Shown here piece after piece: positions 29,857-30,797 of a DNA stretch of 64,000 nucleotides. The stretch is taken from positions 271,192-335,191 of the IMG/VR virus record IMGVR_UViG_3300050821_002957; one strand, given 5' to 3'. Both the position numbers and the translations under genes were made by a program. Under the pieces are notes generated by a model. It made no database searches, was not told where the DNA came from, and saw nothing but the letters and a program-made list of their open reading frames with translations. Every line of letters begins with the position of its first letter. Positions within the stretch are counted from its first letter, which is position 1. Origin of the DNA: a virus.

Positions 29857-30264
29857 CTACTTCAAATTCAGATCCTTACGAATCTTGTCAATCTTGTTAT
29901 TGGTAACTCGATTGTACTCGGACATGATGCGTTTCATAATCGTCCTGAACGATATCTGCACGATCAAAAAAAACATCGCTAACGGCCAGCAAATGACATC
30001 ATAAGCAATTTCCCCACGAAAATCAATTGCTTTCGGTGGTACAGCTTTTAGACGTATGTTGTTTTTTACATAATTCCGCCATTCATAGATGAGAAACTCT
30101 GGGATATTTTCACCCCGAATCCTATGAAACAACAAGAATCGTGCTCGTTCTGCCTCATAGAATCCAATCTCATCATCGACGTACAGCTTCCACCTGATGA
30201 ACCCCCATAAAAAACCCACGGCTGCATAACCAAACACAGCCAGGACATAGTAAAAAATTTTCAT
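29857..30264 (-). CDS. membrane protein
   Basis: An N-terminal TM helix and a second helix are present in 135 aa. Confidence 0.3.
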   Translation of the reverse strand: MKIFYYVLAVFGYAAVGFLWGFIRWKLYVDDEIGFYEAERARFLLFHRIRGENIPEFLIYEWRNYVKNNIRLKAVPPKAIDFRGEIAYDVICWPLAMFFLIVQISFRTIMKRIMSEYNRVTNNKIDKIRKDLNLK

Positions 30265-30797
30265 TGCGGCTCGAAGAGAATGACGTGTATGTTATCAAGC
30301 TCCTGTAGTCTATCATAAACCAATGCCTTTACGTCAACAAAATTCAGACCACCATTCGCACAACCTAACGCAGGCATCGCAAGAGACTTGATGAGTAAAC
30401 CTGACTTCAGCCGGTCCTTCAAATCATCGAGGCCAGCGGCGATCCATTCTAGTTTTGATCCATTTCTCCAATCGTCTTTCGTCGGAAAATTGATAATGAA
30501 TTCGTTGATCTGAGATGTTTGATAGTGTTCACATCCGCAGGCACACCACAACCCCTGATCATGGGCGTCAAAATCACATTCACAAAGACAGTCAGGGATT
30601 TCATGCCAAACCCAAACCTTACCAGTCTGAATGTACTTGCGAGCGCACAATTTCCTGTATTCGACGTACATGTCAGGATAACGCTGCTTGAACTGGAGTG
30701 CGATACCTTTGCCCATCACGCCGACACAATTCACAGTGTTGACGATAGCTTGTGCGCCGCAGTCGAAGAGGTTACCAGTCGTTCGTGTTTCGATCAT
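30261..30797 (-). CDS. macrodomain protein of the TARG1/DarG type (ADP-ribose hydrolase) with a Cys-rich insertion
   Basis: [34 protein letters not shown] resembles TARG1 GDLFSCP...CRMGAGIAVLFKKKF. The C-terminal [13 protein letters not shown] resembles LSMPRIGCGLDRL. An insert [22 protein letters not shown] is present. Confidence 0.65.
   Translation of the reverse strand: [178 protein letters not shown]

Follow-up and report, generated by a model that had tools for sequence, protein, structure and literature searches.

An orphan DarG-type macrodomain with a rare Cys/His-rich insert, a candidate anti-DarT counter-defense enzyme of T4-like huge phages

We analyzed a stretch of 64,000 nucleotides of viral DNA, positions 271,192 to 335,191 of the IMG/VR record IMGVR_UViG_3300050821_002957 (hereafter the window), and focused on a gene encoding a macrodomain with a Cys/His-rich insert. 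Judged by its sequence, fold, and residues, the protein is a DarG-type (DarG2) macrodomain. It is an orphan, antitoxin-like enzyme rather than the DarG of a DarTG2 toxin-antitoxin system. Our overall reading, to which we give a probability of around 60%, is that it acts like AdfM of phage PhiKZ, as an orphan DNA ADP-ribosylglycohydrolase of the DarG2 type, and that its insert is stabilized by metal and takes no part in catalysis. Orphan DarG-like macrodomains countering DarT are already known in phages. The novelty lies in the Cys/His insert, which is rare and lineage-specific.

A preliminary description of the window had proposed this gene as a TARG1/DarG-type macrodomain with a Cys-rich insertion and a role against DarT. 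The coordinates it gave for the open reading frame (ORF) are exact, the product has 178 amino acids (aa), and the quoted peptides are all present, at residues 8-41, 139-151, and 70-91. The gene is thus real, with the correction that it lies on the minus strand. Its ATG start is backed by an invariant M1 and by a conserved N-terminus (MIE.R..G) across homologs. An identical protein (P0001) is found in the JGI, ENA, and Logan assemblies, the longest contig having 405,631 bp. As these assemblies are independent, the sequence, including its Cys-rich stretch, is not an assembly artefact. Scans for promoters and terminators around the gene gave nothing above the shuffled expectation.

The assignment of the protein to the DarG macrodomains was consistent across profile, sequence, and fold comparisons. 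In Pfam, it matches PF01661 (Macro) alone, with an E-value of 5.9e-12. The macrodomain assignment of the preliminary description therefore stands, but the family it named, PF14519/Macro_2, is not among the matches at E<=1. The PADLOC model of DarG is matched with an E-value of 4.3e-58 over positions 4-146 of 329, and the PHROGs match is phrog_335, annotated as "phosphatase". When we searched the sequences of the PDB with phmmer, the macrodomains of the Thermus aquaticus (Taq) DarG (5m31, E 6.7e-34) and of the M. tuberculosis DarG (5m3i, E 2.9e-33) were matched, and so was the T. africanus DarT-DarG fusion (E 2.3e-19). At the weak end of the same search were Poa1p (E ~5e-3) and TARG1 (E ~0.1). 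Placement in a MacroD/YmdB-type deacetylase family, the outcome that would have spoken against the proposed assignment, did not occur: no MacroD-type chain is among the PDB sequence matches at E<=1, and the YmdB-type profile NF001666 (ADP-ribose-binding protein) is matched with 19.9 bits, far under its cutoff of 246.

The structural comparisons gave the same picture. An AlphaFold2 model built from an alignment of 110 sequences has a mean predicted local distance difference test (pLDDT) of 89.8, with 95-98 in the core, and the protein begins directly with strand 1. The first four ranks of a Foldseek search of the PDB with this model are occupied by the Taq DarG, the M. tuberculosis DarG, and the T. 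africanus DarTG (E from 8.5e-19, for 5m3e, to 6.8e-15), with a template modeling score (TMt) of 0.90-0.92 for the stand-alone DarG macrodomains. TARG1 follows DarG, with an E-value of ~3e-10 and 18-19% identity. A fold search in BFVD returned ordinary phage macrodomains only (TMq <=0.76). In other words, DarG is the best match by profile, sequence, and fold, and TARG1 is behind it, so that the TARG1/DarG assignment of the preliminary description can be narrowed to a DarG-like rather than a TARG1-like protein.

The residues of the active site are almost entirely kept. In the Taq DarG, hydrogen bonds to ADP-ribose are made by N8, L9, T20, N22, V31, Q34, T79, G117, G119, N120, and G121, K80 is essential and catalytic, and a stacking interaction with the modified thymine has been proposed for W83 (Jankevicius et al. 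2016, PMC5179494). The equivalents in the phage protein are N9, L10, T21, N23, I32, Q35, T106, G145, A147, N148, G149, K107, and W110, respectively, and K30 aligns with K29 of the Taq DarG. Hence, there are only two departures from the listed contacts, Ile for V31 and Ala for G119, the latter occurring in the same LGCANGGL sequence as in the catalytically active AdfM. The N-terminal half of the core contains the ADP-ribose-binding loop 1 (N20-T21-V22-N23...G26-V-M-G29-K30-G31), and the C-terminal half contains the diphosphate-binding loop 2 (L144-G-C-A-N-G-G-L151). Across 110 homologs, N23, F104, T106, K107, W110, and G149 are invariant. Because the catalytic residues and those contacting ADP-ribose are conserved, we predict from the sequence that the enzyme is active and uses the Lys-based chemistry of DarG and TARG1.

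While the macrodomain resembles that of cellular DarG proteins, its genetic setting is different. We scanned prokaryotes with one genome for each species; among the matches listed, the 80 best cellular relatives are 38-47% identical to the phage protein, and 71 of the 80 are DarG-sized proteins of at least 300 aa (300-370 aa). A DarT profile matches 64 of the 73 ORFs upstream of these cellular homologs, and all six upstream ORFs that we sampled match Pfam PF14487 ("ssDNA thymidine ADP-ribosyltransferase DarT"). The phage protein ends right after the macrodomain and consists of this single domain, without the C-terminal domain by which DarG binds DarT. The DarT profile had no match at E<=10 in the six-frame translation of the window, and there is no Pfam match to DarT in the genes neighboring the macrodomain. 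Since only the macrodomain half is present and the window lacks DarT, the gene is an orphan copy of the enzymatic domain of DarG and not a strict DarG antitoxin. Stand-alone homologs are found in 274 deposited phage genomes under the labels "phosphatase", "Appr-1-p processing", or "macro domain". When the 14 kb surrounding the gene were compared with 50,697 phage records in a DNA search for near-identity, no match was obtained; hence, this phage has no cultured close relative.

There are precedents for such orphan enzymes. Macrodomains were counted in 56% of jumbo phages (Iyer et al. 2022). The protein gp104 of PhiKZ has been described as AdfM, a DarG2-like orphan macrodomain that strips DarT2-installed ADP-ribose from DNA, rescues cells from DarT2 toxicity, and is needed for the infection of DarTG2 hosts, with lowered activity upon the substitution N23A (Morgan et al., Cell Rep 2026, PMC13309987). 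Another orphan antitoxin, AdfN, which is of the NADAR family, counters DarTG1 (Johannesman et al. 2025, PMC11825919). For the Taq system, the macrodomain by itself is enough for the antitoxin action against DarT (PMC5179494). The counter-defense role put forward in the preliminary description is thus supported by the family placement, the intact residues, the linkage of the cellular homologs to darT, and the AdfM precedent. Removal of DarT2-installed ADP-ribose from DNA would be a well-supported substrate and role for the phage protein, if one already published in concept for AdfM. Under this model, the DarT2 of the host would attach ADP-ribose to thymidine in single-stranded phage DNA, and the orphan macrodomain would remove it as an ADP-ribosylglycohydrolase via Lys107, while N23 and W110 hold the substrate in position. 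In this way, the huge phage could replicate and package its genome in hosts carrying DarTG2. As the DarT-binding C-terminal domain is missing, the action would be purely enzymatic, like that of AdfM in PhiKZ.

The insert sets this protein apart from most of its relatives. Alignments to DarG break between residues 66 and 99 of the phage protein, where it has 32 residues against 6 in the Taq DarG, i.e., around 26 extra residues. The 22-residue Cys/His insertion of the preliminary description holds as the core of this segment (residues 70-91), but the inserted segment itself is longer, spanning residues ~67-98. Its claim that such an insertion is not typical of DarG or TARG1 agrees with our counts: among the 120 closest relatives in the database, only seven proteins (P0001-P0006 and P0011) have a comparable insert. 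A profile of these seven proteins, searched against 5.8 billion clusters, recovered its members with 302-356 bits, and no other match exceeded 236 bits; the next one (P0121) carries a Cys/His insert of a different kind at that site, with the sequence GCICLGDGLMGMRCNAPEH. Scans with the insert-clade alignment did not find the insert in the best 80 loci from IMG/VR or, among the matches listed, in the best 80 from metagenomes and the best 80 from genomes. As even the JGI contig of the query was missing from the metagenome matches, the metagenome and genome scans set no bound on the rarity of the insert, of which the profile search of the protein database gives the better estimate.

The seven insert-bearing proteins are well diverged, the others being 51-62% identical to that of the window (BLASTP), and the length of the insert ranges from 25 to 52 residues. 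The only invariant columns of the insert are C70, C72, H79, and C89. Four invariant Cys/His positions amid such length variation are what a metal site with four ligands would be expected to show, which supports the earlier suggestion that the insertion may bind metal. It is probably a zinc-binding Cys2-His-Cys module. The insert of the window has further candidate ligands (C74, C85, C87, and H91) arranged in two CxCxC...H half-motifs, so that it could hold one metal ion, two, or a small thiolate cluster. Pfam scans of four of the insert peptides at E<=10 matched no family. The net charge is negative in all seven members, from -2 to -7, with -7 in the window, while the macrodomain cores of these proteins are about neutral and the median pI of the relatives lacking the insert is 8.5. 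Acidic inserts argue against a zinc finger that binds nucleic acids, and we rejected the reading of the insert as a DNA-binding zinc finger.

The insert occupies the turn that joins strand 62-65 to strand 100-107, the latter bearing T106 and K107 at its C-terminal end, at the ligand crest. None of the listed ADP-ribose contacts comes from this region. Hence, the most likely position of the insert in the modeled fold is at the pole facing away from the active site, where it would protrude. We propose that it would form a small acidic knob on the surface, stabilized by metal (zinc, held by Cys70, Cys72, His79, and Cys89) and lying away from the catalytic crest, with a structural or partner-contact role outside the chemistry.

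The genomic context of the insert gives some indications on its origin. The insert-bearing genes are found in syntenic regions of related huge phages, in the order tyrosyl-tRNA synthetase (TyrRS) ... macrodomain, a gene of 135-148 aa, ClpP ... Ro60/TROVE ... ARH. On contigs of 400 kb and 375 kb, orthologs lacking the insert sit in the same slot, which indicates that an orthologous gene gained the insert within one sub-lineage. The same hairpin loop has been extended elsewhere. Sister orthologs (P0012, P0018, P0126, P0130, and P0141) have unrelated Cys-free extensions of 11-22 residues, P0008 and P0009 have short CxxxxC loops at the insert site, and the loop is longer in the structure of the T. 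africanus DarT-DarG fusion (7OMU), too. The occurrence of unrelated extensions in one loop points to an insertion-tolerant or hypervariable site. The insert has the G+C content of its flanks and shows no compositional anomaly. We rejected an internal duplication as the origin of the two CxCxC halves, since the only near-repeat, of 11 nucleotides and 45 nucleotides apart, is indistinguishable from chance.

Several observations weigh against reading the protein as an AdfM-like enzyme with a metal-stabilized insert. The gene is surrounded by genes with RNA-related functions (Ro60/TROVE, tRNAs, a CCA-adding enzyme, and TyrRS), and Iyer et al. 2022 favor low-molecular-weight ADP-ribose derivatives as substrates of phage macrodomains. 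The match to the NCBIfam DarG equivalog NF048014 scores 197.8 bits, under the cutoff of 250; it reaches position 149 of 338, and the score falls short because only the macrodomain half of the model is matched. Other points concern the insert. P0121, an eighth variant, keeps only C70 and C72 in register. The pLDDT of the insert is 58-65 in the 110-sequence model, and a model from the shallow alignment of 8 insert-bearing sequences is worse (mean pLDDT 66.9, insert <50). The position assigned to the insert follows from the topology of the fold. What, then, could the enzyme act on other than DNA? The RNA-rich surroundings, together with an RNA ligase in the syntenic locus L168 and the preference of Iyer et al., would fit an enzyme of small molecules (ADP-ribose-1''-phosphate from RNA repair or tRNA splicing, O-acetyl-ADP-ribose, or immune signals based on ADP-ribose, such as the gcADPR of Thoeris) that serves RNA repair or signal quenching. 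The JGI label of the protein, O-acetyl-ADP-ribose deacetylase, and its weak similarity in fold and sequence to Poa1p point in this direction. We nevertheless regard such a substrate as unlikely, since Poa1p matches some 30 orders of magnitude more weakly than DarG, the MacroD and NF001666 results are negative, the DarG-specific catalytic Lys and thymine-stacking Trp are invariant, the nearest cellular homologs are linked to DarT, and the homolog AdfM acts on DNA. A TARG1-like enzyme that reverses the ADP-ribosylation of proteins (linked to Glu or Asp) or of RNA by ADP-ribosyltransferases (ARTs) of host defenses, or that tunes the ARTs of the phage, seems less probable still. Its fold and catalytic Lys would be those of TARG1, some homologs are annotated alongside ARTs (in Streptomyces phages), and the nearby hydrolase of the ARH family suggests that the phage has a wider set of tools to reverse ADP-ribosylation; on the other hand, the sequence similarity to TARG1 is marginal and no ART was detected in the Pfam annotation of the 64 kb.

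For the insert, the alternative that deserves most attention, although we hold it to be rather improbable, is that it has no function. It would then be no more than an expansion that a hypervariable loop on the surface tolerates, with cysteines that merely staple it or that bind no metal. The unrelated Cys-free extensions in the same loop of the sister orthologs and of the T. africanus DarTG are in line with this idea, as are the wide variation in length and sequence, the lack of a confidently predicted fold, and the lack of a family match. The four Cys/His positions are nevertheless invariant among diverged proteins, the acidity recurs in all seven, and the insert has been kept in several diverged huge-phage genomes. 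A more speculative and unlikely possibility is that the acidic Cys/His module provides a second, non-enzymatic activity, e.g., by directly binding or occluding the positively charged groove of DarT for single-stranded DNA as a DNA-mimicking stand-in for the C-terminal domain of DarG, or by docking on a partner from the phage or the host. If this were true, the hypervariability of the loop would mark an arms-race interface, and the membrane protein encoded downstream could belong to the same module. Finally, one might think of a catalytic metal site that alters the bond specificity, given that a class of zinc-dependent macrodomains with a Cx4HxC loop and a catalytic zinc exists (PMC11490716). 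This we find very hard to accept: the known zinc loop takes the place of loop 1 in a MacroD-type domain with an N-terminal three-helix bundle (PMC11490716), whereas the phage protein has loops 1 and 2 intact, has its insert in another loop and belongs to another family, and retains the Lys-based catalytic residue of DarG and TARG1. Hence, we keep the reading of an AdfM-like glycohydrolase whose insert would be metal-stabilized and non-catalytic.

Table 1. Features of the macrodomain gene and of other genes in the window (positions refer to the 64,000-nucleotide stretch)
Feature	Positions	Strand	Basis or remark
Orphan DarG-type macrodomain gene, 178 aa + stop	30261..30797	-	ORF, DarG matches, AlphaFold2 core, Foldseek
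N-terminal half of macrodomain core, residues 1-66	30600..30797	-	aligns with Taq DarG residues 6-65
Cys/His-rich acidic insert, residues 67-98, putative Zn-binding module	30504..30599	-	break in DarG alignments
NFPTKDDW motif, residues 103-110, holding T106, K107, W110	30468..30491	-	translation, alignment to Taq DarG
C-terminal half of macrodomain core, residues 99-178	30261..30503	-	aligns with Taq DarG residues 72-149
Downstream ORF, 135 aa, two hydrophobic helices	29857..30264	-	ORF list; conserved in syntenic loci
Upstream ORF, 60 aa, CPH...CLDC motif	30794-30976	-	weak zf-Mss51-like match
Clp-type AAA+ ATPase (AAA_2, ClpB_D2-small)	5722-6819	-	~22 kb from ClpP
CCA-adding enzyme or poly(A) polymerase, PF01743	10472-11722	-	translation-related
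tRNA (Tyr)	14104-14191		ARAGORN only; not in Rfam list at gathering score
tRNA cluster (Asn x2, Trp, Ala x2, Ile)	19675-25105		beside Ro60/TROVE
ARH/DraG-type ADP-ribosylglycohydrolase, PF03747	20521-21456	-	E 6.8e-36; unrelated fold; ~9 kb from macrodomain
tRNA-like element	22195-22267		Rfam only; not called by ARAGORN
tRNA (Ala)	23979-24057		ARAGORN only; not in Rfam list at gathering score
Ro60/TROVE + vWA protein, 621 aa	25191-27056	-	phrog_850
ClpP-like protease, PF00574	29019-29618	-	conserved beside macrodomain cassette in related huge phages
Weak MazE-like ORF	39255-39557	-	
Tyrosyl-tRNA synthetase, PF00579 + S4	39533-40681	-	translation-related, typical of huge phages
Papain-like peptidase C1	41103-41930	-	
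Anticodon-binding-domain protein, PF19269	41934-42314	-	translation-related

The genes flanking the macrodomain differ in their conservation (Table 1). The start of the downstream ORF overlaps the stop codon of the macrodomain gene by 4 nucleotides, and its product is 42-78% identical at all five syntenic loci examined, including those where the macrodomain ortholog lacks the insert. This family is small, with 37 clusters among the 5.8 billion of the database; 19 of the 37 have a longest contig of the same size as that of a macrodomain homolog. No match to it was found in PHROGs, Pfam, or PADLOC. The macrodomain gene and the 135-aa ORF are thus a stable, clade-restricted two-gene cassette, with a putative joint function. 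On the other side, the 60-aa ORF overlaps the start codon of the macrodomain gene by 4 nucleotides, and its zf-Mss51-like match (E 3e-4) is under the cutoff. We rejected this Cys-containing ORF as a partner of the macrodomain, because it is not conserved at the syntenic loci (it is absent from L006 and L007). It is a window-specific insertion between conserved genes.

The contig looks like that of a large T4-type myophage. Its Pfam annotation includes UvsW, UvsY, Mre11/Rad50-like proteins, two endonucleases VII, sheath, tube, and a sigma-like factor, as well as dUTPase, thioredoxin, ClpP with a Clp-type AAA+ ATPase, TyrRS, a CCA-adding enzyme, Ro60/TROVE, and Nudix. The UvsW is ~41% identical to those of cyanophages and of the Methylophilales phage Melnitz. 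Seven tRNA genes are located between 14.1 and 25.1 kb, and no Y-RNA family was detected, with no further search made for a Y-RNA-like partner. The presence of both ClpP and the AAA+ ATPase suggests a phage-borne Clp proteolysis system. The ARH gene is also kept in the syntenic 370-kb phage (L006), although this domain occurs in only ~5% of jumbo phages (Iyer et al. 2022), and the related 375-kb phage (L169) has a NADAR gene near its macrodomain gene.

Counter-defense by orphan antitoxins such as AdfM and AdfN was recently established in chimalliviruses and T-even phages, and these results extend it to a lineage of uncultured T4-like huge phages of 370-405 kb. They suggest that these huge phages, too, are under selection from DarT2 and its ADP-ribosylation of DNA. 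As the macrodomain is accompanied by ARH and Nudix in the window, or by NADAR in L169, some phages appear to carry several enzymes that reverse ADP-ribosylation. Through the Cys/His insert, macrodomains would have gained a metal site in a second way, independent of the first and at a place not involved in catalysis. Should the insert serve to bind a partner, it would illustrate how an antitoxin domain reduced to its enzymatic part can acquire an added function. As it stands, the protein is an incremental addition to a known class and not a new kind of system.

How does the phage protein compare with the known systems? TARG1 (C6orf130) shares the subclass of macrodomain fold, and the catalytic Lys of its pair K84/D125 has an equivalent in the phage protein, but it is eukaryotic, lacks the insert, and has ADP-ribosylated glutamate on proteins as its characterized substrate (PMC5179494). 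The zinc-dependent macrodomains (SauMacro, SpyMacro, and MorMacro; PMC11490716) likewise have a Cys/His metal-binding loop. They differ in being of the MacroD type, with the Cx4HxC loop in place of the catalytic loop 1 and a zinc that is catalytic, and in having an N-terminal three-helix bundle and a SirTM partner (PMC11490716), features with no counterpart in the phage protein. AdfN follows the same logic, as a phage orphan copy of an antitoxin glycohydrolase domain that erases DNA ADP-ribosylation (PMC11825919). Its NADAR fold is, however, unrelated, and it is specific for the guanosine-linked ADP-ribose installed by DarT1, with no effect on DarTG2 (PMC11825919).

The closest systems are DarG and AdfM. 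DarG (DarG2; PDB 5M31, 5M3E, and 5M3I) is the best match in sequence and fold, and has the catalytic Lys and the stacking Trp in common with the phage protein. In cells, it has a DarT-binding C-terminal domain of ~190 aa and an upstream darT, neither of which is found with the phage protein, while the latter has ~26 additional residues, the Cys/His insert, in the hairpin loop that links strands 62-65 and 100-107. AdfM (PhiKZ gp104 and its chimallivirus homologs) is likewise a stand-alone DarG2-like macrodomain of ~160-180 aa from jumbo phages, without a DarT-binding domain and without an adjacent toxin. The two are homologous (BLASTP E 4e-27, 28% identity), although the phage protein is nearer to cellular DarG (38-47%) than to AdfM. 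They share the catalytic-site Asn, N23 of one aligning with N23 of the other, as well as FPTK...W and LGCANGGL. AdfM acts inside the chimallivirus phage nucleus after import by PicA (PMC13309987), whereas the phage of the window resembles a distant T4-type myovirus (UvsW, UvsY, and gp46/47-like proteins); no markers of nucleus-forming phages were seen among the annotated genes of the window, although no search was aimed at them. Finally, AdfM consists of the macrodomain without any Cys/His insert, whereas the phage protein combines the same kind of enzymatic domain with one.

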